From IMG/VR virus record IMGVR_UViG_2690316062_000004: 16,819 bases of DNA. One strand, 5' to 3'. Shown here piece after piece: positions 1-15,889 of this stretch; the stretch's first letter is position 1; every line of letters begins with the position of its first letter. The notes under the pieces are model-generated. The model was not told the origin of the DNA. It searched no databases and saw only the letters and a program-made list of their open reading frames with translations. Origin of the DNA: a virus (Duplodnaviria; Heunggongvirae; Uroviricota; Caudoviricetes). Made by a program: the position numbers and the translations under genes.

Positions 1-885
1 TTACTTTGCAATGAGATCGGGGTCAACTTCGCTAACCCGGCATCGTTTTGACCGGTTGCCCGTCTTTCTTTTTTTCACTTTCGCCAGTTCTTCCGCGGAG
101 TAATGCGACGCGACATCCAGCCGTCGAAGCCCCATTTTGATGTACTCGCTGTTGATCTCAATACCAATGAATTTTCGTCCGCTGGCGATGGCTACGGCAC
201 CGGTAGTAAAGCTACCGGCAAACGGGTCGAGAACGATATCGCCTGGGTTGGAAGAGGCGAGAATAATGCGTTTCAGTAAGGCTTCCGGTTTTTGCGTCGG
301 GTGGTTCTCATATTCATCCATTAAATAACGCACGCGCGGAAAATCCCAGACGTTACCCGGTACTTTTTGATGATTGTATGGCTGTGGAGGATTTTTGCGA
401 TAATCGATCAACGCGCGCTGCGATCCGGTTTTGGCTTCTACCAGAATAGCATCACCGTTGAATGTGTAGTTCTTTGCGTCTTTCACCATCATCAGGATGG
501 GTTCGTACATGGAGCCGTAGTGTTTTTTCGCCTGTACTCCAGAACTGTCATATGACCAGACGATGCGACTTTTGATGGTAAAAAGCTTGCGGCACTGGAG
601 ATCGATAAAGGGCATGTTTTCCGTACTGTTCATAATGTACATGCTGCCCTGCTTTTTCAGAACGCGGTGGCACTCTGCAATCACTTCAAACAGCCAGTCG
701 ATAAACAGATCTTCTTTCCAGGCTTCGATCAGACCATCAAAATTTTTACCGATGTTATACGGTGGGTCGGCAAAGATCAGATCGACGCTTTCAGTAGGTA
801 GCTTTTTAAGTTCGGCAAGGGCATCACCGTGAATAATGGTCTTAGCTTCATTACCAAACCGGGTCGGTTCACATCCTGTTCTCAT
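1..885 (-). CDS. yhdJ: DNA adenine (N6) methyltransferase, YhdJ-like
   Basis: Translation carries the N6-MTase motif IV DPPY (FADPPYNIG) and a C-terminal motif I-like DPFAGSFTTG, and matches my recollection of E. coli YhdJ along its length. Likely ATG at 885 (GGGAG RBS upstream on the minus strand); the ORF track's 891 would be a GTG start. Confidence 0.85.
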   Translation of the reverse strand: MRTGCEPTRFGNEAKTIIHGDALAELKKLPTESVDLIFADPPYNIGKNFDGLIEAWKEDLFIDWLFEVIAECHRVLKKQGSMYIMNSTENMPFIDLQCRKLFTIKSRIVWSYDSSGVQAKKHYGSMYEPILMMVKDAKNYTFNGDAILVEAKTGSQRALIDYRKNPPQPYNHQKVPGNVWDFPRVRYLMDEYENHPTQKPEALLKRIILASSNPGDIVLDPFAGSFTTGAVAIASGRKFIGIEINSEYIKMGLRRLDVASHYSAEELAKVKKRKTGNRSKRCRVSEVDPDLIAK

Positions 886-908
886 GGTCACTCCCTTTGT
901 GACACCTA

Positions 909-1155: not shown

Positions 1156-2376
1156 ATGGCTGGCGAACTTAACAAACTGAGCGACAGGAAGTTAAAGGGA
1201 TTACATGGTATCCCGGCCAGTAAGATTGAGTTCTATGCTGATGGTGCCGGGCTGAGCGCCAAGGTAACTAAAGCTGGTGGTATTAGCTGGGTGTTTACTT
1301 ACCGACTTGACGGGCAGAAGCTGCATCGTCTGACTCTGGGACGATACCCGGATATGAGCCTCAAAGAAGCCCGTTCATCGCGTGATAAATGCCGCCAGTG
1401 GCTGGCCTCAGGTAAAGATCCAAAGCACCAGTTGGCGTTGACTACTCAGGAAACCCTTAAACCGGTCACTGTTAAGGAAGCTATAGAATACTGGATACGC
1501 GAATATGCAGAAGAGAACCGCGCGAATGTTGAACGGCACAAAGCGGAGCTGCGAAAACACATTTATCCTTATATAGGGAAAATGGCGCTCGCTGACTGTG
1601 AAACACGATACTGGCTTGACTGCTTTGACAGGATGAAAAAGAAAACTCCAGTCGCCGCAGGTTATGTGTTCCAGATGTGCAAACAAGCCCTGAAATTCTG
1701 CCGGGTTCGTCGCTATGCTGTGAGTACCGCGCTTGAAGATTTAACAATTCCAGATGTCGGTAAAAAACAGGCAAAAAAAGACCGGGTATTAAACGATAAA
1801 GAGGCTGGCGATTTATGGGCTGCCATTTCCTCTGGCACTTGCTTCATGCCTTACTACACCAGGCTACTGACAATCTTAATAGTGTTTGGGTGCCGAACGC
1901 AGGAGGCCAGGCTATCAGAGTGGAGTGAATGGGATATGGATGCCTGGGTCTGGACAGTTCCCAAAGAGCACAGCAAGGGTGGCGAGAAGATTGTAAGACC
2001 TGTGCCGGATGCCATGCGCAAATTCATTGAAATACTGCATGATGAAACGAAACGATCCGGCCTTTTGCTTGGGTCGGTTAAAGGCAGTGAAGCGGTAAGT
2101 CAGTGGGGCCGCGGCGTTTATAAAAAGCTAGGGCATTCTGAACCATGGACACTGCACGATCTAAGACGAACTTTAGCAACGCATATGAATAATATGGGTA
2201 TAGCACCACACGTTGTCGAACAGTTGCTGGGGCACTCAATGCCGGGAGTCATGGCGATTTATAACCGTAGTCTGTACTTGCCTGAGAAACTGGATGCGTT
2301 GAATAAATGGTATGACAGACTTGATATTTTATCAGGTGGATTCACTAACATTGTTTTGTTGAATAAGGCTGAATAA
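1156..2376 (+). CDS. int: Tyrosine recombinase / phage integrase, P4 family
   Basis: 406 aa with an N-terminal arm-binding-type region, then catalytic-core signatures (R in GCRTQEA, HDLRRT, LLGH, and the tyrosine in AIYNRS). Confidence 0.9.
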   Translation: MAGELNKLSDRKLKGLHGIPASKIEFYADGAGLSAKVTKAGGISWVFTYRLDGQKLHRLTLGRYPDMSLKEARSSRDKCRQWLASGKDPKHQLALTTQETLKPVTVKEAIEYWIREYAEENRANVERHKAELRKHIYPYIGKMALADCETRYWLDCFDRMKKKTPVAAGYVFQMCKQALKFCRVRRYAVSTALEDLTIPDVGKKQAKKDRVLNDKEAGDLWAAISSGTCFMPYYTRLLTILIVFGCRTQEARLSEWSEWDMDAWVWTVPKEHSKGGEKIVRPVPDAMRKFIEILHDETKRSGLLLGSVKGSEAVSQWGRGVYKKLGHSEPWTLHDLRRTLATHMNNMGIAPHVVEQLLGHSMPGVMAIYNRSLYLPEKLDALNKWYDRLDILSGGFTNIVLLNKAE

Positions 2377-3026
2377 TGACTAGTTTTCTAAAATTGGGTA
2401 TTTTCGAGCGAGAAGCCAAAGCCCCGGAGCTAAATATTAAACAACTTGCACTACTTATGTGTGGGGTAGATCCGACAGTTAAAACTGCTGATATCCCTGA
2501 AGCGAAAGTTGAAGCTTACAATATATACTATCGACAACTGAGTAGATGGTTATCAGCATCTAAATTATTTCGAGGTGGAAACTCAACAGCCTATCCCGCA
2601 GACTATATGTTTGCTCTGGCATATCCTCTTATTGATGAAGATATTACACCACAACCCATAAAGGACAGATGCCTTGCGGCGGTGGCTATAATTGCTAATC
2701 AAAACAAAGGAAAAGAGCATCTTTATGCTATGGGAGGGGATGAGCTTTTACAGGTCGGAATTGCATTGAAAAGCAGCAAACGCGGCTTGCATCGTAAAGA
2801 AGATGAAAAGGAATATAATGATAAATTAATGGGGATGCTGGTCAAGCTTATAGCACATAAGATAGGCCATTCGTTTGGCACCTCTAAAAAACCAAGCATC
2901 TCGGCTATTTTAAACGAACTATATAAATTAGCTGATGAGGAAGGTATATCTAAAACTGGATTATCTAAATCAGCAATATATGAGAAAATTCGAAAGGCAT
3001 TAAATTCGATTTATTATACGGAATGA
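2376..3026 (+). CDS. Hypothetical protein (216 aa), AT-rich, int-coupled cargo gene
   Basis: ATG overlaps the int stop (TAATG at 2374..2378). The gene is visibly AT-rich compared with the neighbouring genes. I recognise no family motif. Confidence 0.6.
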   Translation: MTSFLKLGIFEREAKAPELNIKQLALLMCGVDPTVKTADIPEAKVEAYNIYYRQLSRWLSASKLFRGGNSTAYPADYMFALAYPLIDEDITPQPIKDRCLAAVAIIANQNKGKEHLYAMGGDELLQVGIALKSSKRGLHRKEDEKEYNDKLMGMLVKLIAHKIGHSFGTSKKPSISAILNELYKLADEEGISKTGLSKSAIYEKIRKALNSIYYTE

Positions 3027-3160
3027 ATATTATTTTGCAGTGTTAGTAGGTATTATTTATATTTCATGTGAAAATACTAATTAATTATATTTGTTGGAGC
3101 TTTTGGCGATTCTATGATCGCCAAGGAGATTCAATTGTTATATTTGATGTGTATTACCGT

Positions 3161-3270
3161 TACATTCAACAGCATTCAACAGCATTCAACAGCATTCAAC
3201 AGCATTCAACGACACGTAATGACACGTTATGACACGTAACGGCACCCGACAGCACCTAACAATACCTAGC
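3161..3270. repeat. Eleven 10-bp phased direct repeats (five AGCATTCAAC-type, then degenerate GACACGTAAT-type units)
   Basis: Read directly: tACATTCAAC, AGCATTCAAC x4, GACACGTAAT, GACACGTTAT, GACACGTAAC, GGCACCCGAC, AGCACCTAAC, AATACCTAGC, with strict 10-bp periodicity. Confidence 0.8.
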
Positions 3271-3310
3271 TCCATCCACGGTCCCTACTAGGTCATTACT
3301 TGCTAACTTT

Positions 3311-3373
3311 TTCCATCTTTGTTCATGGTTATTCATCACTGTTCATCAGCGTTCATCATTGTTCATCTTTGTT
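3311..3373. repeat. Six 10-bp phased GTTCATC-type repeats (iteron-like, one mismatch from TGTTCACC)
   Basis: ttccatcttt / gttcatggtt / attcatcact / gttcatcagc / gttcatcatt / gttcatcttt. TGTTCATC differs by one base from the TGTTCACC units clustered after the primase gene. Confidence 0.7.
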
Positions 3374-3626
3374 ATGAACAATCCAAGGTGAATCAAATCG
3401 TTAAAGAACGGTGATCTTCGGCGAGTTATTGAAATTCATGATTTTTTCTCTCGAGACAGCCGTTGAAATTACTGTGGAAACTGTTTTAAACAGGGGAGCG
3501 TTATCTTGATGGAATTTCTATCTTTCAATGGAATTGCATGTTCTTTTAAAGGATTCCAGAATCAATGGAAATTCTGGTCGTTTATCCACTAATCTCTTCG
3601 CATAACATTGAAACAGTGGAGGCAGC

Positions 3627-3911
3627 ATGCAAAATATAACCTTTACCCCGCCAAATCCTGAACAGCGCCGCACCCTTTTAGAAGAGTACGGCTTTAAGTT
3701 TGATCGCCGAATCCGTGAAGATGAATGCAGCGAGATCACCAGTCTTTCCCGTTCCAGCCGCTGGAAGATGGAGCAGCAGGGGCGCTTCCCTCCGCGCTGT
3801 CACTTTGGCCGCAATAGCTGTGCTTGGCTTCTTTCGGATGTGCTCTGGTGGGTTCGTAATCCGCCAGCAGTAGAGAACGTCAATAACCCATACAGCCGTA
3901 AATCTGCTTAA
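3627..3911 (+). CDS. alpA: AlpA-family (prophage CP4-57-type) transcriptional regulator
   Basis: 94 aa; the SLSRSSRWKMEQQGRFPPR segment is the typical AlpA/Vis-like helix-turn-helix signature. GGAGG RBS at 3619..3623 before the ATG at 3627. Confidence 0.8.
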   Translation: MQNITFTPPNPEQRRTLLEEYGFKFDRRIREDECSEITSLSRSSRWKMEQQGRFPPRCHFGRNSCAWLLSDVLWWVRNPPAVENVNNPYSRKSA

Positions 3912-3931: not shown

Positions 3932-4624
3932 ATGAAAAAGATTAATGCCCTCCACGGGCAGGGATTCGCTCACCCTGTAGCCAGCCAGCACGATATTTCA
4001 GCGAACCGTAAACAGGTTATTTCCGGTGACTGGTCGCCCATTAATCGCGGTGAATTTACGCTTGCCGATCTGGGGTTGCGCCACAACGGTAACGGGCTGG
4101 TGTGGCTGCGTTCCGGCGTGTCCGTGCATGAGGCAGACCATGATGTAGGGATAAGCGGCAAGGACAAGACCAAAGGAAGGGTTAATGGTCTTCCTTTTGA
4201 ATTTGTCGGCCAGTGGCAGGAATACCCGACTAAACGCAGCTTTGCCGTTTCAGTATCTACGGAACTACGCCGCCAGTATTACCCGGACGATGCCACTTTT
4301 GGTAAGGCGATGCGTGAGGCGGGTTATATCCCCGTGCGCACCCGTAAATTGACCGGGAAGCTGGCAAGTTACTGGCTGTATAGAGTAACGGGTAACGATA
4401 AGGGGGTATGCACAGCAGAACCCACGCCCTGCAAGGCTTCCGCGCCAGTTGTCCAGACCATATCTAAGCCTCATCCGTGGTTTAAACGTGTGGCACTCGA
4501 TGGTAAATGGCAGTACGTCTACGCAGATCACATCCGCTTTCTGACGAAAAAGCGTCATCGCGTCGATGGTGTTCGGGTTCAGGGGTATACCGCTGGCGGG
4601 CTGAAAGTGGAGGCTATTGTATGA
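3932..4624 (+). CDS. Hypothetical protein (230 aa), backbone gene of unknown function
   Basis: Long ORF with backbone-like GC content directly after alpA. No motif recognised. Confidence 0.55.
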
Positions 4625-4734
4625 CAGGCAAAACAAAGGCGGCCATGCCGGGCCGCCAGTGCAATACCGCTTTACAGAAACATCGCCAGATTACCAGGCT
4701 TGCCGCTGGTGGTCAAACCTTGAGCCGACGAAAT

Positions 4735-4772
4735 CCGTACGCACAAATTAACCGCGTACGTTTAACGTACGG
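4735..4772. promoter_or_regulatory. CGTACG-based palindrome cluster, possible operator
   Basis: Perfect 8+1+8 inverted repeat CGTACGTT-t-AACGTACG at 4755..4771, plus a further CCGTACG half-site at 4735..4741. Confidence 0.3.
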
Positions 4773-4875
4773 AGATCGAGACAAAGGCGAACAGTATTCG
4801 GGTTCATGGCAAAACAACGTTAAACGTGGTTTAGAGGCTCCGACGAAAAACGTAGAGAGCTGCGAAGATAACCAA

Positions 4876-4945
4876 CCCTCTTTAAGAGGGGAGCCTCTGC
4901 ACAACTCATTAATAGTTGCGCAAAACAGACCCTTTTTAAGAGGGG
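4876..4945. repeat. Two copies of a 16-bp palindromic unit, CCCTCTTTAAGAGGGG and CCCTTTTTAAGAGGGG
   Basis: 15 of 16 positions identical at 4876..4891 and 4930..4945; each unit is a (near-)perfect inverted repeat. They lie just 3' of the minus-strand small gene. Confidence 0.5.
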
Positions 4946-4976
4946 CAGTCCACAGCATTACGGGGAGTAACCCTGT

Positions 4977-5150
4977 TCAGCCTTTTGGCTCGATGCCGCG
5001 CTTATCAAGTTCACGGCGCAAAAGGCGTTTTATCCATCCCGACTTATTATCGTCACCGTCTTCTTTCATCGCTAAAGCGAGCCGCTCTGACAGTTCTTTA
5101 TCGAGTCTGAGCTGCACAACATGGCGCTCTTTATTTTCGCTTGTTGACAT
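4977..5150 (-). CDS. Small ribbon-helix-helix-like DNA-binding protein (57 aa), candidate repressor
   Basis: Internal ATG at 5150 preceded on the minus strand by GGAG. The peptide [57 protein letters not shown] has the strand-helix-helix pattern of Arc/CopG-type proteins. The 38-aa proline-rich extension in the ORF track (start 5264) looks non-coding. Confidence 0.45.
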
Positions 5151-5192
5151 TGTCAACTCCTGTGGTCTAGTCTGTAGTGGAGTTGACAATGT
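5147..5192. promoter_or_regulatory. Perfect 14-bp inverted repeat with 18-bp spacer, covering the RBS and start codon of the RHH gene
   Basis: ACATTGTCAACTCC (5147..5160) and GGAGTTGACAATGT (5179..5192) are exact reverse complements. TTGACA hexamers occur at 5144..5149 and 5183..5188. Confidence 0.6.
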
Positions 5193-5289
5193 ACTACATT
5201 GCATGACTTTTAGTAAAGCAAAGCCCGGCAGTGGTGGAACACTAACCGGGCCTCTAACCACCACCGTTAGCGAAAGTAACGAGGCAGCT

Positions 5290-5481
5290 ATGAAAGATCA
5301 TATCACACACCCGCAAGGGCGGAAGTCCTACATCTGGCGTTTTCTTGCACTGAGCGCCATCGGTCGCAACGTCATTCACATCACAGCTAACACTGAGCGC
5401 GAAGCCCGTGAGCAATCACCGGCTGGCTGCGTGATGGTATGCGCTGGCCGTCTACCAGTTCAGGAGGTTCGCTATGCGTGA
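5290..5481 (+). CDS. Hypothetical small protein (63 aa), first gene of the replication operon
   Basis: ATG at 5290 with GAGG five nt upstream; stop overlaps the next ATG (ATGCGTGA). It is the only plausible part of the 324-aa track ORF. Confidence 0.35.
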
Positions 5482-5880: not shown

Positions 5881-6058
5881 AATCAACGATAGCTGGAAGG
5901 ATAAGCGCGGCGAACTGGTCACGGTGAAAGATAACGCATTTAACCGGGTAACGTTTGTGCGTGATGGTTACGATTTTCCGTGCATCTTTCCGCTGGAAAG
6001 GTTCGTTAAAGAGTTCACTTTCGTTAGCTGGGGGCTGAAAGATGAAAAACGCGCCTAA
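5867..6058 (+). CDS. Hypothetical small protein (63 aa)
   Basis: GTG start with GGGAGG RBS at 5855..5860; the 3' end overlaps the primase start. Confidence 0.45.
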   Translation: MRNPEINDSWKDKRGELVTVKDNAFNRVTFVRDGYDFPCIFPLERFVKEFTFVSWGLKDEKRA

Positions 6059-7811
6059 TGTGAAAACCCTCCCGCGCGACAAAATGGAGGAGGCCATCAT
6101 CTTTGCTGGAACGGGAGCATGGAAAGCCGCTCAGGATTACCAGAAAGGCAAGGGCGAGCATGGAGACGATGTTCCACCTGTGGTTCTGGATCACACCCAA
6201 CTGGCGGAATTGCCACACCTGCGCATTGTTGATAAAGGCCGTCGGTTTGCTCGTGTCTGTCAGGCCGGACTTATCGAGCAAAACCAAATCAGCATGATTG
6301 CAAATAAGCTGTGTGAGGCTGGCGTTACCAATGCTGAGTTTATCAACGAAAAAGGTGAGAAAGAGGACTGGACGCCATTAATGAAGCGTTTGGAAGACGA
6401 GCCCCTAATGGTGACTACGAGGGGTAGTGCTACGCCAGCGCTTAACCAGATGGGAGCCAGCCAGCGCGGGGAGGTTCTGCTTGCTCATTACGATGGCAAT
6501 CTGGCGATCCATGCTGATTCTGACACGGTTCATCATTACAACGGCGTGGTGTGGGTTCCGCTTTCGGATAAAGAGCTACAGCGGGAAATGGCGCAAATTT
6601 TTATTGATGCCGAAGTCGCCTATTCGCAGAACGCGATTAAATCCGCTGTCGATACAATGAAGCTGGGTCTGCCAGTGATGGGTAATACAGCCCGAAATCT
6701 TATTGGTTTCAGCAACGGGGTTTTTGATACCCGGTTAGGCCAATTTCGACCGCATGATAAAAAGGACTGGCTTATCGTTGCGAGCGAATTGCCATTCAGC
6801 GAACCAGCAGAAGGAGAGACTCTGGCAACCCATGCGCCGAACTTCTGGAAATGGCTCCGCCGCTCAGTGGCGGATAATGACCGAAAAGCAGACCGCGTAC
6901 TGTCTGCGCTGTTTATGGTGCTGGCGAACCGGTACGACTGGCAGCTGTTTCTTGAGGTAACGGGGCCGGGCGGAAGTGGTAAAAGTGTTATGGCTGAGAT
7001 CTGCACGATGCTGGCGGGCAAGGCCAACACCGTATCAGCGAGCATGGCGGCGCTGGAGAACCCAAGGGAAAGGGCGCTGGTAGTGGGCTATTCGCTGATT
7101 ATCATGCCGGATATGACCCGGTACGCTGGCGACGGCGCAGGGATTAAAGCTATCACTGGCGGGGATAAGGTAGCCATTGACCCTAAACACAAAGCGCCAT
7201 ATTCAACCCGTATTCCAGCGGTGGTGCTTGCCGTCAATAACAATGCCATGTCGTTCAGCGACAGAAGCGGGGGGGTTTCCAGACGGCGGGTGATTTTCAA
7301 CTTCTCCGAAGTGGTACCGGAAAACGAACGCGATCCTATGCTGGCCGAGAAGATTGAAGGTGAGCTGGCTGTAATCATTCGCCACCTGCTCACTCGCTTT
7401 TCCAGGCAGGACGAAGCCAAACAGCTTTTGCATGAGCAGCAGAAATCAGAAGAAGCGCTGGCCATCAAACGTGAAGGGGATTCACTGGTGGACTTTTGCG
7501 GCTACCTGATGGCTTCGGTGGTTTGTGATGGAATGCTGATTGGCAATGCCGAGATCGTGCCATTCAGCCCGCGCCGTTATCTGTATCACGCTTATCTGGC
7601 TTATATGCGGGCTAATGGTCTGAGCAAGCCGGTATCGCTGATGAGGTTCGGTACGGATATGCCAGGCGCAATGGCTGAATATGGCAAGGAGTACCAGAAG
7701 CGCAAAACAAAACATGGCATAAGGTCAAACGTCACGCTTCACGACGACTCAGAAGACTGGATGCCTATGTGGAATGATACATCTCATAACAGTGGAGAAA
7801 ATCAAAAGTAA
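6042..7811 (+). CDS. P4-family primase/replicative helicase (alpha-like, D5/SF3 NTPase)
   Basis: 589 aa; Walker A GPGGSGKS with downstream Walker B-like acidic stretch (LIIMPDMT), the usual layout of phage/plasmid primase P4-family C-terminal domains. Followed immediately by an iteron cluster. Confidence 0.85.
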   Translation: MKNAPNVKTLPRDKMEEAIIFAGTGAWKAAQDYQKGKGEHGDDVPPVVLDHTQLAELPHLRIVDKGRRFARVCQAGLIEQNQISMIANKLCEAGVTNAEFINEKGEKEDWTPLMKRLEDEPLMVTTRGSATPALNQMGASQRGEVLLAHYDGNLAIHADSDTVHHYNGVVWVPLSDKELQREMAQIFIDAEVAYSQNAIKSAVDTMKLGLPVMGNTARNLIGFSNGVFDTRLGQFRPHDKKDWLIVASELPFSEPAEGETLATHAPNFWKWLRRSVADNDRKADRVLSALFMVLANRYDWQLFLEVTGPGGSGKSVMAEICTMLAGKANTVSASMAALENPRERALVVGYSLIIMPDMTRYAGDGAGIKAITGGDKVAIDPKHKAPYSTRIPAVVLAVNNNAMSFSDRSGGVSRRRVIFNFSEVVPENERDPMLAEKIEGELAVIIRHLLTRFSRQDEAKQLLHEQQKSEEALAIKREGDSLVDFCGYLMASVVCDGMLIGNAEIVPFSPRRYLYHAYLAYMRANGLSKPVSLMRFGTDMPGAMAEYGKEYQKRKTKHGIRSNVTLHDDSEDWMPMWNDTSHNSGENQK

Positions 7812-7819
7812 TGGGAAAA

Positions 7820-8049
7820 GTGTTCACCACTATTCACCGTGGATAAAATCGTCTATTTAACAGATAGTTAAGGGGTGAACACTTTTTATTGAAGTGTTCA
7901 CCAAGTATTCACCTGTTCACCTTTAAAGGGTTTTTCTTTTAAAAGGTGAAGGGTTAGGGTGAATACTAGTGAATACTTAAAATTATAGTCTTCACCCTGT
8001 AACCCAATGAATTTAAATAGGAAAAATGCAAAGGTGAACAGGTGAACAC
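7820..8049. repeat. Iteron cluster (TGTTCACC / TATTCACC / CTTCACC and complements), putative replication origin (ori/crr)
   Basis: At least eleven copies in both orientations, e.g. GTGTTCACC 7820..7828, TATTCACC 7831..7838, GGTGAACAC 7874..7882, GTGTTCACC 7895..7903, TGTTCACC 7914..7921, GGTGAATAC 7959..7967, GGTGAACAGGTGAACAC 8033..8049, with an AT-rich tract at 7921..7945. Confidence 0.65.
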
Positions 8050-8082
8050 TTAAACGTATATTTCTATTTTTTGAGGCTACAG

Positions 8083-8427
8083 ATGGAAATTTTAGGTAAT
8101 CATAAAGACAAGTTTCAGGGTATCCAATTTCTGCATAGTGCAATCGAAGAACTGAATGAGAAAACTGGAGTAACGCTGACAGACTATCTGGCTTTAAGGG
8201 CTTTTGTTCTGGCTGAGCGAAGGGAAAATCAGGATTACATTGACGCTATGGATGCACCATATGCTGACTTACCAGATGAACTGCGTTCTTACATTGAACT
8301 TCTCAATGATGTTGCTGCACAACTGTCCAATCCAGCACGTTCAAATGGAGATTTGAGGTCAATCATTTATGATGCGAGAATATCCAGCGGAAACGCTGTG
8401 TCTCACTGGCTTAATGTCGAAAGATAA
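8083..8427 (+). CDS. Hypothetical acidic protein (114 aa), first gene of the AT-rich cargo cassette
   Basis: ATG at 8083 with GAGG at 8074..8077 (the track's 8071 would be a TTG start). AT-rich; no motif recognised. Confidence 0.55.
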   Translation: MEILGNHKDKFQGIQFLHSAIEELNEKTGVTLTDYLALRAFVLAERRENQDYIDAMDAPYADLPDELRSYIELLNDVAAQLSNPARSNGDLRSIIYDARISSGNAVSHWLNVER

Positions 8428-8450: not shown

Positions 8451-9296
8451 ATGCGAACTAACGATAATTTACAGATGATCAATAAACATCTGGAAGGAGA
8501 GTTTGAACGGCAATTGTTTGACTCTGCGATCTACAATCTTTTAGATGTAAATAATCAACTTCGCTTCAGTAATTATGCCTATGCACTTAGAGAACTATTT
8601 TTACACGTCATAAAACGCATGGCACCTGATAAAAATGTTCAGTCATGTGATTGGTTCCCTGGCTTGAATGAAAGAGAGCAGGTCTCAAGAAAAGACTCTT
8701 ACAAATATATAATCCAGGGTGGGTTAAGTGATGAATATGTCAGGGAAGAGCTTGATGTAAATGTTGCTGGGGTTTTTCCGAGGTTACGTGACGCATTCAA
8801 TTCATTAAATAAATTTACTCACATCAGCGAAAATATTTTCCCAATTAATGATGATGCTGGCCTCCAAATGGTCGGAGAGGTTGAAGGCTGTATCAGCGCT
8901 CTTTTCACCAAGCTTGATGAGTGTCATAAGGAGATAATTAATAAGCTATATGAAGCCGTTAGTGAGGCCGCGATTCATAGTTCGATAACTGAAACTGTAA
9001 CATCAATTGATATTTTATCGACACACAGTTCGGTTGATGAAGTGTATGTTGATGATGTTAAAATAGTAGAAATAAATGATACTGAAATAGTTTTCTCTGT
9101 TATTGGTTCTGTAGGTGTCGGGTTGCAATGGGGATCTAATTCCGATTTGCGAAATGATATTGGTGCTGTAGGTAGTGAGACATTCCCATTTACCTGCGAG
9201 GTGAGAAGTCCAGTGTATGCCCCTGAAAGTTTAGAGTGTGATGAAGGGGCATTCCATGCAGATACTTCAAGCTGGTGGGAAGGGTATTACGACTAA
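8451..9296 (+). CDS. Hypothetical protein (281 aa), second gene of the AT-rich cargo cassette
   Basis: ATG 24 nt after the upstream stop; AT-rich; followed by an intrinsic terminator. Contains an R-x4-H stretch (RELFLH), which is only weak evidence for any fold. Confidence 0.6.
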   Translation: MRTNDNLQMINKHLEGEFERQLFDSAIYNLLDVNNQLRFSNYAYALRELFLHVIKRMAPDKNVQSCDWFPGLNEREQVSRKDSYKYIIQGGLSDEYVREELDVNVAGVFPRLRDAFNSLNKFTHISENIFPINDDAGLQMVGEVEGCISALFTKLDECHKEIINKLYEAVSEAAIHSSITETVTSIDILSTHSSVDEVYVDDVKIVEINDTEIVFSVIGSVGVGLQWGSNSDLRNDIGAVGSETFPFTCEVRSPVYAPESLECDEGAFHADTSSWWEGYYD

Positions 9297-9528: not shown

Positions 9529-10695
9529 ATGAAGAAACTACTCGAATTACGCCAGCAGAAAGCCGCACTCAAAACACAGATGCGTTCCATGCTGGACAAA
9601 GCCGACACCGAAAAGCGCAGCCTGAACGAAGAAGAGGGCAAAAAGTTCGATGAACTCCGCGCCCAGGCTGATGCGCTTGAAGTTGAAATCACCCGTCTAG
9701 AAGCCGTCGCCGACGATCAGCGCAATCTGCCTGGTACTTCCGTTGAAGGTGAGCCAGTAAGCAACGACGAGCTGCGCCACTACATCATGACAGGTGATAC
9801 CCGTTCTCTCTCCACGCTGGTGCAGGCTGATGGCGGCTATACCGTTATCCCTGAGCTGGACAAAGAGATTATGCGCCAGTTGCAGGATGATAGCGTGATG
9901 CGCTCCATCGCAACGGTGAAGACCACCAAAACCAACGAATACCAGAAGCTGGTATCTGTGGGCGGCACTACCGTTAATCGTGGTACCGAAGGTGAGGCAC
10001 GTACCGAAACCAGTACGCCGAAGATGGAGCGCGTTGATATCAAACTCAACCCGATCTACGCCTACCCGAAAACCACTCAGGAGATTCTCGACTTCTCCGA
10101 GGTGGATATTTTGGGCTGGCTGTCTTCTGAAATTGCCGACACCTTCACCGCGACCGAAGAAAGCGACTTTGTGAACGGCGACGGTGATAAAAAATCCAAA
10201 GGCTTCCTGTCTTACCCTCGCGCGGCCACTGCCGACAAAACCCGTCCGTTCGGTACGCTGGAGAAGATGGAAGCGGCTGACGTTTCCTCTGATGGCCTGA
10301 TCGACCTGCTGTATAAGCTGAAAGCCAAATACCGCAAAAACGCCGTATGGGTGATGAACTCCAACACCGCAGCCAAACTGCAAAAGCTGAAAAACGGCAA
10401 CGGGGATTACATCTGGCGCGATCGTCTGGTTGCCGGTTCTCCCGATACGCTGCTGGGCCGTCCTGTTCAGTATCTGGAAACCATGCCGGATGCGGAGGCA
10501 GGTAAAGCATTCCTCGCGGTAGGCGACTTCAAGCGCGGCTATTTCATCGTGGATCACACCACTGGCGTGCGTACCCGCCCTGACAACATCACCGAGCCGG
10601 GTTTCTACAAGGTGCATACCGATAAATACCTGGGCGGTGGTGTGGTGGACTCCAACGCCATCAAGGTGCTTGAGCTTTCAGGCTCCGGTTCCTGA
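9529..10695 (+). CDS. Major capsid protein, HK97 fold, with N-terminal coiled-coil scaffold-like domain
   Basis: 388 aa. The N-terminal ~100 aa are highly charged and helical (delta-domain-like), followed by a capsid-type body. Its position directly before a prohead protease and portal supports the call. Confidence 0.85.
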   Translation: MKKLLELRQQKAALKTQMRSMLDKADTEKRSLNEEEGKKFDELRAQADALEVEITRLEAVADDQRNLPGTSVEGEPVSNDELRHYIMTGDTRSLSTLVQADGGYTVIPELDKEIMRQLQDDSVMRSIATVKTTKTNEYQKLVSVGGTTVNRGTEGEARTETSTPKMERVDIKLNPIYAYPKTTQEILDFSEVDILGWLSSEIADTFTATEESDFVNGDGDKKSKGFLSYPRAATADKTRPFGTLEKMEAADVSSDGLIDLLYKLKAKYRKNAVWVMNSNTAAKLQKLKNGNGDYIWRDRLVAGSPDTLLGRPVQYLETMPDAEAGKAFLAVGDFKRGYFIVDHTTGVRTRPDNITEPGFYKVHTDKYLGGGVVDSNAIKVLELSGSGS

Positions 10696-10705
10696 TTTGA
10701 CGTTT

Positions 10706-10726
10706 AAGGGGCTGCGGCCCCTTTTT
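10706..10726 (+). terminator. Intrinsic terminator/attenuator after the capsid gene
   Basis: GGGGC-TGCG-GCCCC hairpin (10708..10721) followed by TTTTT (10722..10726). Confidence 0.55.
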
Positions 10727-10746
10727 GCCCTCTGTGGAGTCCAGTA

Positions 10747-11307
10747 ATGAAAACAATCGATTTTGAAATCCGTACCTCCGAAGTGAGCGCCAGCAACAAA
10801 AAGCTGGTGGGCTATGCCGTGCGCTGGAACAGTCTCTCTGAAATTATCTGGGACGAGTTCCGCGAGCAGTTTGCGCCGGGAGCGTTTAAAGACAGCCTGG
10901 CATCCGGTAGCGATGTGCGTGCGCTGTACGAGCATAACTATACCCAGCTGCTGGGCCGCACTAAATCCGGCACGCTGGTGCTGTCAGAAGATGATACCGG
11001 GCTGCGCTTCGAGCTGACCCCGCCGAATACCCAGCTTGGCAACGATGTGCTGGAGCTGGTGGAGCGCGGGGATATCTCCGGCATGAGCTTTGGTTTCCGG
11101 GCGCTGAAAGAGGCGTGGGATATTGCTCAGTCTCCATACCTGCGCACTGTTACCGCTGCCGAACTGCGGGAGATTACCGTTACCTCTATGCCTGCTTATC
11201 CTGAGTCTGGCGTGGAAATCGCGCACCGTTCGCTTTTCTCCCAATATCCTGAACTGCGCCGGGCTGGTGATAACCGCCGCCGCTGGGCTGAATTAGCGGG
11301 GCTCTGA
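10747..11307 (+). CDS. Prohead serine protease, HK97 family
   Basis: 186 aa, with N-terminal GYAVRW and the SFGF segment typical of HK97-type prohead proteases. Confidence 0.8.
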   Translation: MKTIDFEIRTSEVSASNKKLVGYAVRWNSLSEIIWDEFREQFAPGAFKDSLASGSDVRALYEHNYTQLLGRTKSGTLVLSEDDTGLRFELTPPNTQLGNDVLELVERGDISGMSFGFRALKEAWDIAQSPYLRTVTAAELREITVTSMPAYPESGVEIAHRSLFSQYPELRRAGDNRRRWAELAGL

Positions 11308-11308
11308 T

Positions 11309-12544
11309 ATGTGGAATATCTGGCCGTTTGGCCGTAAGTCTGAACCCTCTGAGCAGCGCAGCATGACCATTGATGAGTTTCTGGCGATGGCAGGGATTCC
11401 AAATACCGGATCAGGCGAATATGTGTCTGCGGGTACTGCGGAATCTCTGCCGGCGGTCATGAACGCCGTGTCAGTTATCAGTGAGGCGGTGGCAACAATG
11501 CCCTGCTACCTCTACCGCGTGCGCAACGATAACGGGCGTGAGGCGCGAGAATGGCTGAGCAATCACCCGGTGGATTTTCTCCTGAACGAGCAGCCGAACG
11601 ACTGCCAGACGCCTTATCAGTTTAAACGCACGATGATGCGCCATTGTCTGCTGAACGGTAACGCCTATGCGGTGATCCAGTGGGGCCGCGACGGCCAGCC
11701 GCAATCCCTGCACCCGTATGCGCCGGGGGCGGTTGTTCCTGAGCGTATCGGCCAGCATAAGTACAAATACACCGTTACAGAGCCGTTTACCGGGGCTGTG
11801 CGCACCTATCTACAGGAAGAGATTCTGCACCTGCGTTACTCCACCGATGATGGCTTTCTGGGGCGTTCGCCTATTACTACGTGCCGTGAGGCGCTGGGGT
11901 TAGGTCTGGCCCAACAGCGCCACGGTGCCAGCATTATGAAAGATGGCATGATGGCGGCGGGCGTCGTCACTACTGCTGAATGGCTCGACAGCGTGAAGGG
12001 TAAGCAGGCTCTGGACGCACTGGAGCGCTACAAAGGTGCCAGAAATGCCGGGAAAACGCCGATCCTTGAAGGTGGCATGGACTACAAGCAGCTTGGCATG
12101 AGCAATCAGGATGCCGAATGGCTGGCGTCGCGCCGGTTCTCCATTGAAGACATTGCCCGCATGTTCAATGTGTCGCCCATCTTCCTGCAGGAATACAGCA
12201 ACAGCACCTACAGCAATTTCAGCGAAGCGAGCCGCGCCTTTCTCACCATGACCATGCGCCCGTGGCTGGCGAACTTCGAGCAACAAATCAAATCTGCTTT
12301 GCTGGTGGCCTCTCCGGTTCCAGGAACCCGCTATCAGGTGGAGTTTGACTCTGCTGACCTTCTCCGTGCCACACCTACCGAGCGTTACGCCACTTATGAG
12401 CGAGGCATTAAGAACGGGATCATGAACCCGAACGAAGCCCGTGAGCGCGAGGGGATGCCGCCGCGTAAAGGTGGTGACGAATTCAGCCAGGCATGGAAGC
12501 AGGAAGTGAAGATCAGCAAAGACGGCAAGGAAGGTGACGCATGA
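11309..12544 (+). CDS. Portal protein, HK97 family
   Basis: 411 aa; size, composition and position (between protease and adaptor) fit HK97-type portals; translationally coupled to its neighbours. Confidence 0.85.
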   Translation: MWNIWPFGRKSEPSEQRSMTIDEFLAMAGIPNTGSGEYVSAGTAESLPAVMNAVSVISEAVATMPCYLYRVRNDNGREAREWLSNHPVDFLLNEQPNDCQTPYQFKRTMMRHCLLNGNAYAVIQWGRDGQPQSLHPYAPGAVVPERIGQHKYKYTVTEPFTGAVRTYLQEEILHLRYSTDDGFLGRSPITTCREALGLGLAQQRHGASIMKDGMMAAGVVTTAEWLDSVKGKQALDALERYKGARNAGKTPILEGGMDYKQLGMSNQDAEWLASRRFSIEDIARMFNVSPIFLQEYSNSTYSNFSEASRAFLTMTMRPWLANFEQQIKSALLVASPVPGTRYQVEFDSADLLRATPTERYATYERGIKNGIMNPNEAREREGMPPRKGGDEFSQAWKQEVKISKDGKEGDA

Positions 12545-12879
12545 GAGCCGGGGGGCTGAGAAGCCGCGACACTATTCGGGTATTCACTACCCACAGGGAG
12601 CCGTCCGGTCAGGTTGTTCAGGTCTGGGAAGACGGGGAAACCATATGGGCTGAGGTTAAGGGGATCAGTGGCCGAGAGTTAATGGCGTCAGGTGCCGAGG
12701 TTGCCGAAGCGACGATCCGCGTTTGGGTGCGTTTCCGCCGTGATATTACCGCAGCCAACCGTCTGAAAGTGCTTACTGGCCCGTTTGCTGGCAGCACTCT
12801 CAATATTATCGGGCCTCCTATTCCTGATTCGGAAGGTACTCGGCTGGAAATTCTCTGCAAGACAGGAACGGAAAAATGA
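12541..12879 (+). CDS. Head closure / head-tail adaptor protein
   Basis: 112 aa; ATGA overlap with the portal stop; pattern resembles small head-tail joining proteins. Confidence 0.65.
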   Translation: MRAGGLRSRDTIRVFTTHREPSGQVVQVWEDGETIWAEVKGISGRELMASGAEVAEATIRVWVRFRRDITAANRLKVLTGPFAGSTLNIIGPPIPDSEGTRLEILCKTGTEK

Positions 12880-13169
12880 CAGCAGAAATCACCCTGGATG
12901 AAGCAAAGCTGCATTGCCGTATTGATGATGATTACGAAGATACGTTGATACAGGCGTACATCGATGCGGCGCTGGAGGTTTGCCAGAAGCATATCGGCAA
13001 GCGGTTTGATAACGGGCTGGAGTTTACGCCAGCTATCAAGATTGGCTGTCTGATGTACGTATCTCAGCTGTACGAGTACCGCACGATGATTGGTGATACC
13101 GACGCCAAAGAGATACCGATGGCTGTCTCTGCGTTGTGGTCTGTCTATCGTGATGTGGGGGTGTACTGA
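12876..13169 (+). CDS. gp6-like head-tail connector protein
   Basis: 97 aa; N-terminus ITLDEAKLHCRIDDDYEDTLIQAYIDAA matches the gp6-like connector signature. Confidence 0.7.
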   Translation: MTAEITLDEAKLHCRIDDDYEDTLIQAYIDAALEVCQKHIGKRFDNGLEFTPAIKIGCLMYVSQLYEYRTMIGDTDAKEIPMAVSALWSVYRDVGVY

Positions 13170-13612
13170 TGCCGTGGCAACCACTACGCCGGTGCAATGA
13201 GCCGGGATGTAATAAACGGGTGAAGTCTGGCAAGTGTGACGAGCATAAGCGGGATGCCCGCCGACAAAGCGACAGCCGAAGAGGTACGCGAACAGAGCGT
13301 GGTTACTCCAACCGCTGGGGCGAATACCGTCGTCATTTTCTAAAAGCTAATCCGCTGTGTGTCCATTGTCTCAAGGCTGGCGTCTATGCATCGGCAACTA
13401 TCGTCGATCACATCATCCCTATCGAGGGTGAAGCTGATGTGCTGTTCTGGCCCGCCAGTAATCACCAGTCGTTATGCGCTGCCTGTCATGGACGGAAGAC
13501 AACCACAACAGACCCGGTGACGAAGCAGCAGCGTAAAGCCGGTAAGTTCCGCGAGCAGGAAGAAGCAGCACGTCATCGCACCGACTGGATCTATGAGGCA
13601 AACAATGACTGA
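13169..13612 (+). CDS. HNH endonuclease (packaging-associated)
   Basis: 147 aa with Cys clusters (CNEPGC, CVHC, CAAC) and a histidine in the DHIIPI segment; TGATG overlap with the upstream gene; sits immediately before the terminase genes. Confidence 0.8.
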   Translation: MPWQPLRRCNEPGCNKRVKSGKCDEHKRDARRQSDSRRGTRTERGYSNRWGEYRRHFLKANPLCVHCLKAGVYASATIVDHIIPIEGEADVLFWPASNHQSLCAACHGRKTTTTDPVTKQQRKAGKFREQEEAARHRTDWIYEANND

Positions 13613-13887
13613 GCAGGAACAGCAGCGGCTGATTAGTGGGCTGATAAAGCAGCGTGAGTCATGGCAACCAGCCAGACAGAGAGCGCATAAGAAGCCCGTA
13701 GCAAAGCGCATGAGCCAGCGTGACCGGGAGCTTATGGAATGCTTTCGCAACCGCTGACAGGCCGAATGGACGGGGTGGGGGAGGTTTTCAGGACAAACCC
13801 CTCTCAGCGAGGAACCACCCGCCCCCTCAAATTTTTACGCACGGTGATTTTTTTGAAAATAAAACGCGACGGAAACGAGAAATTTTT

Positions 13888-14244
13888 ATGGCAAGACCAC
13901 CCAAACCGCCAGCTTACCTTGATGAGTTAGCTGCGCAGCAGTGGAAAGCGAAGGCGAAGCAACTGGCGGAGCGCGGGGATTTGACTCCCGCCGACTGGAA
14001 CAACCTTGAGCTTTTTTGCGTCAACTATTCGATGTACCGCAAAGCCGTGGAAGACCTTGCCAGCCGTGGGTTCAGCATTGTTAACAGCCAGGGCGGTGAG
14101 AGCCGAAATCCGGCGCTGAGCGCAAAGGCCGATGCTGAAAAAATCATGATTAAAATGTCGTCGCTGCTGGGCTTTGATCCGGTAAGCCGCCGCCGGAACC
14201 CGGTGGAAACGGAGGAGGAAGACGAGCTTGACCGTCTGGAATGA
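13888..14244 (+). CDS. Terminase small subunit (P27-like)
   Basis: ATG at 13888 gives the 118-aa protein MARPPKPPAYLDELAAQQW..., typical of small terminases; the GTG at 13720 in the ORF track would add a glycine-rich, non-protein-like leader. Confidence 0.7.
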   Translation: MARPPKPPAYLDELAAQQWKAKAKQLAERGDLTPADWNNLELFCVNYSMYRKAVEDLASRGFSIVNSQGGESRNPALSAKADAEKIMIKMSSLLGFDPVSRRRNPVETEEEDELDRLE

Positions 14245-15889
14245 GTACGCAAACGCGATAAAAACGGGCGAAATTCCGGCCTGTAAGCGCGTAAAACAGG
14301 CCGTGGAAAGGTACTTTTCAGACCTGAATGACCCCCGTTATGTGTTCGATACGGCGACCGTAGAGCGGTTTATTGCGTTCTCGCGGCTCTGTCCTCACGT
14401 CAAAGGCCCGTTGCGCGGGCAGTCTATCGAGCTGGAGCCGTGGCAGCAGTTCGCCTTTGCTAACCTGCTGGGCTTTAAAGTCAGGGAGTCAGGCCGCCGG
14501 AAGTATAGCAGCGCCTTTATTGAGGTGCCGCGCAAGAATGCCAAATCCACCGTGGCCGCCATGCTGGCTAACTGGTTTCTGGTGATGGAGAAGGGCCAGC
14601 AGGATATCTACACGGCGGCGGTAAGCCGGGATCAGGCCCGAATCGTGTTCGACGATGCCCGCCAGATGTGCCTGCTGTCAAAACCGCTGAAAAAGCGCGT
14701 CAGTATTCAGGCACACAAGGTCATTTTCCCGAAGAGCAACAGCCTGTTAAAGCCGCTGGCGGCAAAAGCGGCCACCATTGAAGGGACTAACCCCAGCCTG
14801 GCGATTGTCGATGAGTACCACCTTCACCCGGATAACGGCGTTTATTCCGCGCTTGAGCTGGGTATGGGCGCCCGTCCTGAGGCAATTTTGTTCGCCATCA
14901 CTACCGCCGGGAGTAACGTAGTCTCGGCCTGTAAGCAGCATTATGACTACTGCTGCCAGATTCTGGCAGGGGAAGAGAGCAACGATTCTCTGTTTGTCCT
15001 GATATACGAGCTGGACGACGAAATTGAGGTTGAGCAGCCGGAAATGTGGATTAAGGCCAACCCTAACCTGCATGTGTCTGTTGACGCAGCGAAGCTGGAA
15101 TCCACCATCCAGAAAGCGCGGGGGGTACCGTCGCAATGGGTGGAAATGCTCACCAAACGTTTCAATATCTGGTGTCAGGGCTCCACGCCGTGGATGGGGG
15201 CTGGCGCGTGGGATGCCTGTGCACTCGACTATAACGAAGAAGAGCTGGTCGGAATGGAGTGTTATGCCGGGTTTGACCTGTCCTCAACCAGCGATATCAC
15301 CAGCGTGAGTTACGCTTTCCCGTTTGACAGGGAGATCCGGCTTCTGACCCGCCACTATCTACCGGAAGCGCAACTGCTTAACGTCGCCAACAAAAACCGC
15401 GCCATCTATCGCCAGTGGGTAAAAACGGGCTGGATACGCACCACACCCGGCGACTGTATCGACTATGACCGCATTCGTGACGATATCCTGCGCGATGCTG
15501 AAACCTTCAATATTCGGCTGGTGGGCTTTGATACGTGGAACGCTACGCATCTGCGCACCCAGCTACAGGGTGCGGGCCTTGATGTTGAGCCATTCCCGCA
15601 AACCTATCTCAGGTTCAGTCCGGTAGCGAAATCCTTTGAAGTGTTTGTTAACCGCAGGGTAGTGCGCCATCGCGGTGATCCGGTTCTGGCCTGGGCGATT
15701 GGTAACGTGGTGATGGAGTCCGACGCCAATGCCAACATCAAGCCCAACAAAAAGAAATCCTCCAACAAGATAGATCCGGCTGTGTCTGCGTTAATGGCGT
15801 TTGGCACCTTCCAGGCTGAGCACGAGGATTTTGCATTTGATATGAGTGACAGTCACAAACAACGGCTAGCTGATTTCAATGGGCTTTGA
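14228..15889 (+). CDS. Terminase large subunit
   Basis: 553 aa with the overall layout of large terminases. No in-frame ATG near the 5' end, so a TTG start at 14228 overlapping the small subunit is assumed; the start is uncertain. Confidence 0.85.
   Translation: MTVWNEYANAIKTGEIPACKRVKQAVERYFSDLNDPRYVFDTATVERFIAFSRLCPHVKGPLRGQSIELEPWQQFAFANLLGFKVRESGRRKYSSAFIEVPRKNAKSTVAAMLANWFLVMEKGQQDIYTAAVSRDQARIVFDDARQMCLLSKPLKKRVSIQAHKVIFPKSNSLLKPLAAKAATIEGTNPSLAIVDEYHLHPDNGVYSALELGMGARPEAILFAITTAGSNVVSACKQHYDYCCQILAGEESNDSLFVLIYELDDEIEVEQPEMWIKANPNLHVSVDAAKLESTIQKARGVPSQWVEMLTKRFNIWCQGSTPWMGAGAWDACALDYNEEELVGMECYAGFDLSSTSDITSVSYAFPFDREIRLLTRHYLPEAQLLNVANKNRAIYRQWVKTGWIRTTPGDCIDYDRIRDDILRDAETFNIRLVGFDTWNATHLRTQLQGAGLDVEPFPQTYLRFSPVAKSFEVFVNRRVVRHRGDPVLAWAIGNVVMESDANANIKPNKKKSSNKIDPAVSALMAFGTFQAEHEDFAFDMSDSHKQRLADFNGL

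Follow-up and report, generated by a model that had tools for sequence, protein, structure and literature searches.

The 216-amino-acid (aa) open reading frame (ORF) that follows the integrase gene in a 16,819-nucleotide (nt) stretch of viral DNA (IMG/VR record IMGVR_UViG_2690316062_000004, referred to here, at its full length, as the window) belongs to the small, uncharacterized phrog_30524 family, which is accompanied in 13 of 13 independent loci by the same arrangement of TGGAAT-type sites in front of alpA. The ORF (2376-3026, plus strand) lies in what is, by its gene layout, a capsid-forming phage-inducible chromosomal island (PICI) of the 'fis PICI' group, and alpA (3627-3911, plus strand; Pfam Phage_AlpA, phrog_2790) encodes the master activator and excisionase-type regulator of Gram-negative PICIs (PMC6092414). 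Because the family always travels with these conserved sites, the ORF may regulate induction of the satellite and not be defence cargo. We tentatively propose that it regulates the alpA promoter and is swapped between islands together with its own operators, although this reading could well prove wrong. All of the evidence is comparative.

The ORF is a real gene and not a chance reading frame, judging from a full-length match to phrog_30524 (E 6e-121), from homologues that group into 23 clusters when the threshold is 90% identity (46 representatives at 50%), and from the excess of synonymous over non-synonymous codon differences (18 to 3) that separates it from three near-identical copies. As stated in a preliminary description of this DNA, it starts on the integrase stop codon, its ATG sharing the A of the stop (gaaTAATGac, 2374-2378). 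An overlap of this kind (ATGA or TAATG) recurs in the Proteus and Yersinia homologues and in relatives of 25-36% identity. The same description had called the gene more AT-rich than int, and its GC content is 38.1%, whereas that of int is 47.7%, that of alpA 51.9% and the window average 49.3%.

Every member of the family with readable flanks, down to 25% identity, is found in the order int, ORF, AT-rich spacer of 290-700 nt, alpA, with the start of the ORF overlapping or abutting the int stop codon. These loci come from two attachment (att) sites in E. coli and from Klebsiella, Enterobacter, Yersinia, Rahnella, Brenneria, Pectobacterium, Xenorhabdus, Proteus and Providencia, and the order is also kept in the 25-36% identity relatives at the yicC site. 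Their neighbours can be very different: the integrase upstream of the family gene in Xenorhabdus and Serratia is only 25% identical to that of the window, and the AlpA of distant loci is a 70-aa protein of the HTH_17 type with approximately 26% identity. No other kind of hotspot was found to contain the family; its sole phage record, vB_KppS-Ant, is the same satellite, and among matches in the plasmid collection those with annotated neighbours place the family gene next to an integrase. What is new is that a single gene family keeps the same position, together with one conserved cis-element before alpA, across such deep divergence.

In the window, where TGGAAT sites form no other cluster, the site block spans 3506-3573, 54-121 nt 5' of the alpA start codon. 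It consists of two direct sites (3510-3515 and 3529-3534), an inverted site (3553-3558) and a fourth, direct copy reading TGGAAA (3566-3571), the last two of which form an inverted repeat. In all 13 family loci the arrangement is the same and lies 40-140 nt upstream of alpA: two direct sites 20 bp apart, an inverted copy and a fourth direct copy, of which the last two form a palindrome. A reference point in the inverted site is 78-83 nt from the alpA ATG throughout, and the 13 site-block sequences align essentially without gaps, while the remainder of the spacer is unalignable. The loci were taken from E. coli (two att sites), Yersinia, Rahnella, Brenneria, Xenorhabdus, Pectobacterium, Proteus and Providencia, together with three relatives of 25-36% identity.

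Counts of the core motif set these loci apart from islands with other genes at the same place. Between -140 and -41, TGGAA or TTCCA occurs 39 times in the 13 family loci (2.4 expected), compared with three times (1.4 expected) in seven loci with other genes in this slot. For the longer TGGAAT or ATTCCA, between -140 and -27, the corresponding figures are 27 (1.0 expected) and one (0.6 expected). The block was not found in sister islands that carry other slot genes and an AlpA approximately 97% identical to that of the window. As int and AlpA diverge to 25 and 26% identity while the block is kept, and as it is missing beside near-identical AlpA proteins, it is the ORF that the sites follow, as opposed to AlpA, the integrase or the host genus. 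The sequence of the sites points in the same direction, since site variants go with variants of the last helix of the ORF product. In four loci where this helix reads ST(I/L)DKKI in place of STxYKKI, CTAGAAA or CTGGAAA and GATTCT replace CTGGAAT and GATTCC, and one of these loci, in Pectobacterium, has an AlpA 94% identical to that of the window.

Even in homologue P0060, which has only the C-terminal module in common with the family, the stop codon is followed by two TGGAA sites and then by an alpA-like ORF. A 16-mer search of viral contigs gave mostly chance matches, although three contigs with alpA were consistent with the pattern, and a short AT-rich blastn query against E. coli gave no match, probably as a result of low-complexity masking. 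No consensus sigma-70 promoter was found within the block, which fits a factor-dependent promoter.

The alpA leader itself differs between islands. Sister islands (L002, 5610-5642; also L003, L004, L068 and L069) have a strong 5' leader hairpin, CCTCCAC...GTGGAGG (-21.5 kcal/mol, z score -4.6), which buries the Shine-Dalgarno sequence. In the window (3584-3622) and in other islands with the phrog_30524 family, pairing of the leader is much weaker (z score 0.6 to -2.0), with CCACT/AGTGG and CCATT/AATGG variants. In the Xenorhabdus island L019, which has an integrase of another family (25% identity), the TGGAAT block and the canonical alpA are separated by an additional AlpA/HTH_17-like gene of 68 aa (8128-8334).

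Comparison with E. coli sister islands at fis/yhdJ reveals that the ORF is exchanged as part of a larger cassette. These islands have an int 96-98% identical and an AlpA approximately 97% identical to those of the window, and between the two genes they encode a protein of 309 aa, one of 272 aa or a DUF6387 protein. Homology of the window to sister islands L002-L004 ends at 2319 or 2363, in the last 15-55 nt of int, and returns at 3601-3610. The exchanged segment (approximately 2320-3605) thus comprises the last 55 nt or so of int, the ORF and all but the last 25 nt or so of the spacer. Homology to the alpA region of 78 further E. coli genomes starts at approximately 3596-3648 of the window. 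Of the 84 E. coli genomes in which a related alpA was present, only the six carriers of the ORF also share the 160 nt that precede the gene. The unit of exchange is therefore the ORF plus 600 bp of downstream non-coding DNA carrying the alpA upstream region, and not the ORF alone.

The same plan, with one AT-rich gene between int and alpA, is found in other PICIs at the gcd/hpt site. In all 20 loci sampled the slot holds exactly one gene, of 216-346 aa, and is never empty or multi-gene; all of its occupants are AT-rich (34-40% GC). Slot proteins of 309, 313, 272 and 346 aa share approximately 40 N-terminal residues with one another (E 1e-9 to 0.04). An N-terminal domain common to all slot proteins was considered and rejected, as the phrog_30524 family and DUF6387 do not share these residues. 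No alternative slot protein resembles the phrog_30524 family.

The product of the ORF is predicted to be all-helical and soluble, with an N-terminal domain (residues 1-111), a long helix (112-163) and, at the C terminus, a module of three helices that ends in GLSKSAIYEKI. No membrane segment was predicted, in line with the earlier impression that there was none. There was no Pfam or NCBIfam family, no match at E ≤ 0.1 among the 5027 defence models of PADLOC, nothing but noise in sequence and profile searches of PDB, and no significant fold match. A metzincin metalloprotease motif (HExxHxxGxxH) was considered for the region AHKIGHSFGTSK ('AHKIGH') and rejected, since it has K in place of the glutamate and lacks the third histidine, both of its histidines vary in homologues, and profile matches reached only E 0.03-0.2. 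The C-terminal module (RGxHRKxDE...KLxGLL...GLxKSTxYxKI) is the most widely conserved part and the sole part shared by three very distant relatives; the N-terminal domain is more variable. Because the conserved residues (R136, G137, E144, K150, G195 and K204) are non-catalytic in type and the protein is basic (pI 9.0), we read it as a binding protein, possibly of DNA, and not as an enzyme. The last helix of the family, GLSKSTxYKKI, resembles the recognition helix of AlpA/HTH_17 proteins, GLSKSTIYKKI being close to GVSRSTIYRLI, which we take to be the HTH_17 pattern.

These features suggest a two-part regulatory cassette, of which the ORF would be the protein half, made together with the integrase by translational coupling. 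Its product may act on the four TGGAAT-type sites and so set, in one direction or the other, whether alpA is on, alpA being the switch for excision, replication and packaging. In such a scheme the C-terminal module would contact the DNA and the variable N-terminal domain would receive a signal, for example from a helper-phage protein. How helper phages induce the alpA promoters of Gram-negative PICIs is not understood, and these islands have no known repressor (PMC6092414, PMC11773190).

Several observations weigh against the ORF being a regulator of alpA. The fold evidence for DNA binding is weak, as the resemblance to a helix-turn-helix (HTH) is below threshold (the best Phage_AlpA match in Pfam searches with 30 members had E 0.012-0.09, and hhalign gave a probability of 5.6%). 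The co-variation of helix and sites comes from one clade, and a weak terminator-like hairpin (3556-3577) is another possible reading of the last two sites. In islands that lack the family, the sequence upstream of alpA is mildly enriched in looser TGGA motifs, which makes autoregulation by AlpA a real alternative, and linkage alone could hold the ORF and the sites together. Furthermore, an ORF truncated by IS1 after approximately codon 164 is present in E. coli TUM9754 (IS1A; L077, 1677-2922) and DETEC-P61, in islands that are still integrated. This argues against the ORF as sole master repressor and fits a positive or sensor role, a redundant or dispensable repressor, or plain cargo. The IS1A allele is in effect a natural knock-out of the C-terminal module.

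The main competing explanation, and a serious one, is that the gene is accessory cargo, that is, a single-gene anti-phage, helper-interference or host-adaptive protein in the 5' accessory region of the PICI, with the TGGAAT sites serving AlpA, or a factor of the helper or host, and merely linked to the gene. We regard this as possible but somewhat unlikely. Related islands do differ in the gene between int and the regulator, as the preliminary description had supposed in calling this a variable slot, and in keeping with that the ORF is not a backbone gene among the sister islands. PICI accessory genes are known at this position and immune systems at the int end (PMC10085698, PMC11364771), so that, as a cargo slot, the int-proximal position is already known in general terms. 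The AT-richness of all occupants, the rarity of the ORF (6 of 5426 complete E. coli genomes), the tolerated IS1 disruption, the looser TGGA motifs near alpA without the family, and a non-enzymatic family of unknown fold, as is the case for many newly found defence proteins, are all what cargo would lead one to expect. The defence role suggested earlier has nothing to link it to this gene, however, given the lack of a PADLOC match and the presence of homologues beside an integrase wherever flanks are readable, plasmid matches included. One position and one cis-element kept down to 25% identity, across unrelated integrases and AlpA proteins, are atypical of shuffled cargo, as is a slot that always holds a single gene, and to this extent the cargo reading is incomplete. 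The idea of later insertion holds in part: the gene is AT-rich and swappable, but it is not free-standing, being exchanged with its 600 bp of non-coding DNA.

Two further roles were weighed for the ORF product. As an integrase accessory factor it would affect recombination directionality or host range and be made stoichiometrically with Int, for which its conserved translational coupling to int and its invariable place directly after that gene might speak. Yet the same family follows integrases only 25% identical, unrelated slot proteins stand beside int genes 96-98% identical, and there is no co-variation with integrase lineage; AlpA, itself an excisionase-type factor, is present in every island, and similarity to an excisionase, which the preliminary description had named as grounds for abandoning its view, was looked for among the Xis, HTH_17 and AlpA families and no significant match was obtained. 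Such a role is thus extremely improbable. A maintenance or partition-like function, in which the protein binds 10-bp repeats in the spacer as a centromere-like or silencing array and stabilizes or silences the excised or integrated element, is very unlikely, despite a layout similar to that of pSK1 Par, a single-protein partition system in which an HTH and coiled-coil protein binds adjacent tandem repeats.

The repeats in question lie in the spacer, between the ORF and the site block. Two 10-bp tandem arrays, CAGCATTCAA (4.8 copies) and GACACGTAAT (2.9 copies), occupy 3163-3239 and decay in register to approximately 3290, and a third, with six copies of a TGTTCATCA-type unit, lies at 3314-3373. 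Similar arrays with unrelated unit sequences are found in almost every family locus (for example, L005 8801-9007, L009 8697-8909 and L019 7714-7925). A lag-10 autocorrelation peak was seen in seven of eight spacers, the eighth having a period of 9, and copy number differs even between near-identical islands. No arrays were found in the spacers of islands with other slot genes. The unit of array 3 is one mismatch from the iteron TGTTCACC of the replication origin (ori), a likeness that other family loci do not have.

Several functions were considered for these arrays and set aside. A replication origin or crr-like element was rejected because the P4-type iteron ori lies after the primase gene and iteron likeness is confined to array 3 of the window, and integrase arm sites were rejected on account of the distance from att and the variability of the arrays. 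The negative GC skew of the window would suit a C-rich Rho-loading tract, but the Proteus and Yersinia arrays do not fit, and a structured RNA was discarded since there was no match in Rfam. Upstream of the arrays, 77 nt after the ORF stop codon, is a perfect 8-bp inverted repeat, TTGGCGAT-N6-ATCGCCAA (3103-3124), with no T-run behind it, which may serve as a palindrome for protein binding or fold into a weak RNA hairpin.

[quoted passage not shown] These are also encoded beside int, on the int strand, and are highly variable between similar islands; Stl is proposed to have a DNA-binding part and a variable part that meets a helper-phage protein, and it controls the excision and replication switch (PMC6092414), as is suggested here for the ORF. 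In contrast, there is no similarity of sequence or fold, the ORF is co-directional with the gene it would regulate while Stl is divergent, its putative target is the activator alpA, and its disruption is tolerated in an integrated island, unlike what would be expected for stl. Extending the parallel, the int-proximal slot may be an 'immunity-like' region, in which different proteins are each paired with their own stretch of DNA upstream of alpA, a pairing that could set the helper phage by which an island is induced. On the boldest reading, the slot between int and alpA in enterobacterial PICIs would be not a cargo bay but the missing control region. Each slot protein, most clearly that of the phrog_30524 family, would sense a helper phage and act on its own operators before alpA, so deciding which helper induces the island, and would be exchanged with them as a unit. 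This Gram-negative counterpart of SaPI Stl is a speculative generalization that we consider unlikely to hold in full.

Control of the P4 late promoter by P2 Cox at cox boxes is a further parallel. A small DNA-binding protein acts there on tandem, helically phased repeats and couples activation of the satellite to its helper. Cox is helper-encoded, small and of the winged-helix type, whereas the ORF product is satellite-encoded and of unknown fold.

Other known systems resemble the slot by position. The 5' accessory or immune region of PICIs (PMC10085698; Fillol-Salom et al. 2022, as cited in PMC11364771) is likewise variable, AT-rich and located between int and the regulator in those accounts, but the phrog_30524 family lacks defence homology, moves between islands together with the sequence upstream of alpA, and keeps to one position across deep divergence. 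The defence hotspot of P4-like satellites (Rousset et al. 2022, as cited in PMC11364771), with which the gene had been compared in the preliminary description, is similarly a variable locus in an enterobacterial satellite. As described in PMC11364771 and PMC10085698, it is near the cos site region of an element with psu-delta-sid, whereas the window holds a PICI with its own capsid, portal and terminase. The analogy is therefore positional only, the element being a capsid-forming PICI and not a P4-type satellite.

How Gram-negative PICIs are switched on by their helpers, and whether they have a repressor, has been a question since their first description (PMC6092414) and is still so in PMC11773190. 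The family is a testable candidate for the missing control step, consisting of one 216-aa protein, one 70-bp site block and one promoter. If the ORF controls alpA, the gene next to int needs to be reinterpreted in thousands of islands at fis, hpt and yicC, and helper range might be predictable from sequence. If it does not, the ORF is one more uncharacterized accessory gene in a known variable region.

The remainder of the window is in keeping with the assignment to the capsid-forming 'fis PICI' group (PMC10111431; bioRxiv 10.1101/2022.09.08.507074), inserted at fis/yhdJ. The gene yhdJ (1-891, minus strand; Pfam match) is followed by the attL core at 971-985, TTAGTTCATGCCGTA, the reverse complement of the block TACGGCATGAACTAA at the fis 3' end and its lone exact match in the window; the consensus identity block at the fis-PICI att site is given in PMC10111431. 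The tyrosine integrase (int, 1156-2376, plus strand) has the Pfam domains Arm-DNA-bind_3 and Phage_integrase. An Icd-like gene and small genes separate alpA from a D5-type primase-helicase gene (6042-7811), which has the same direction as int and alpA. Downstream of it is the origin (7812-8050), where an AT-rich core is flanked by two inverted sets of P4-type iterons (TGTTCACC/TATTCACC), and this co-directional order with the iterons after the primase is that of capsid-forming PICIs. A head and packaging module (9529-15889; Pfam) encodes capsid, protease, portal, head completion protein, connector, HNH, TerS and TerL proteins, and neither tail nor lysis genes were found in the window, a gene content characteristic of this class. 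The window stops short of attR.

A close relative, vB_KppS-Ant (LR881103.1), is a capsid-forming PICI deposited as a phage, in a 16.5-kb GenBank record with an induced lysate as its source, which is at most indirect evidence for helper-dependent induction and packaging. It has a 99.5% identical ORF right after int, annotated only as hypothetical, and shares the core order terS, terL, int, ORF, alpA, primase, capsid, portal, but differs in the accessory genes after the primase and after terL. Copies of the ORF 99.5-100% identical are also present in genomes of Klebsiella pneumoniae and Enterobacter hormaechei. After terL, vB_KppS-Ant has a 2.3-kb gene annotated as 'tail length tape measure protein', which is probably a mis-annotated 3' accessory gene. 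At the same place the window has a different, AT-rich gene (15926-16819, minus strand; 37-41% GC), which probably sits in the 3' accessory region. Its 297-aa product could be assigned to no Pfam or NCBIfam family, and PADLOC gave no significant match.

Two AT-rich genes (8071-8427 and 8451-9296; 35-40% GC) directly follow the primase gene and ori, at the mid-island accessory region described for PICIs (PMC11364771), and are not present in vB_KppS-Ant. Both Pfam domains of pPIWI-associated nucleases were identified in the product of the second, which also matches the PADLOC model Aga_Nuclease (E 1e-84); no Argonaute gene is present in the window, so that the nuclease stands alone. Iterons differ elsewhere, with GTCTCCACC in the Yersinia island and GTCTACC/GTATCTACC in another E. 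coli island. Between alpA and the primase, a 324-aa ORF (4507-5481), whose last 50 or so residues form an Icd-like cell-division-inhibitor domain, overlaps the preceding 230-aa ORF (3932-4624) by 118 nt. The gene model here is uncertain, since RefSeq annotation of a sister island has only the short form and vB_KppS-Ant the long one. Finally, the doubled motif that has been proposed as arm-type sites in helper-embedded PICIs and reported as absent from fis PICIs (PMC10111431) is resembled by repeats just 5' of int (1047-1142), where TGTATAAA(C) motifs recur and are doubled at 1116-1142 (TGTATAAACATT TGTATAAACACTT).

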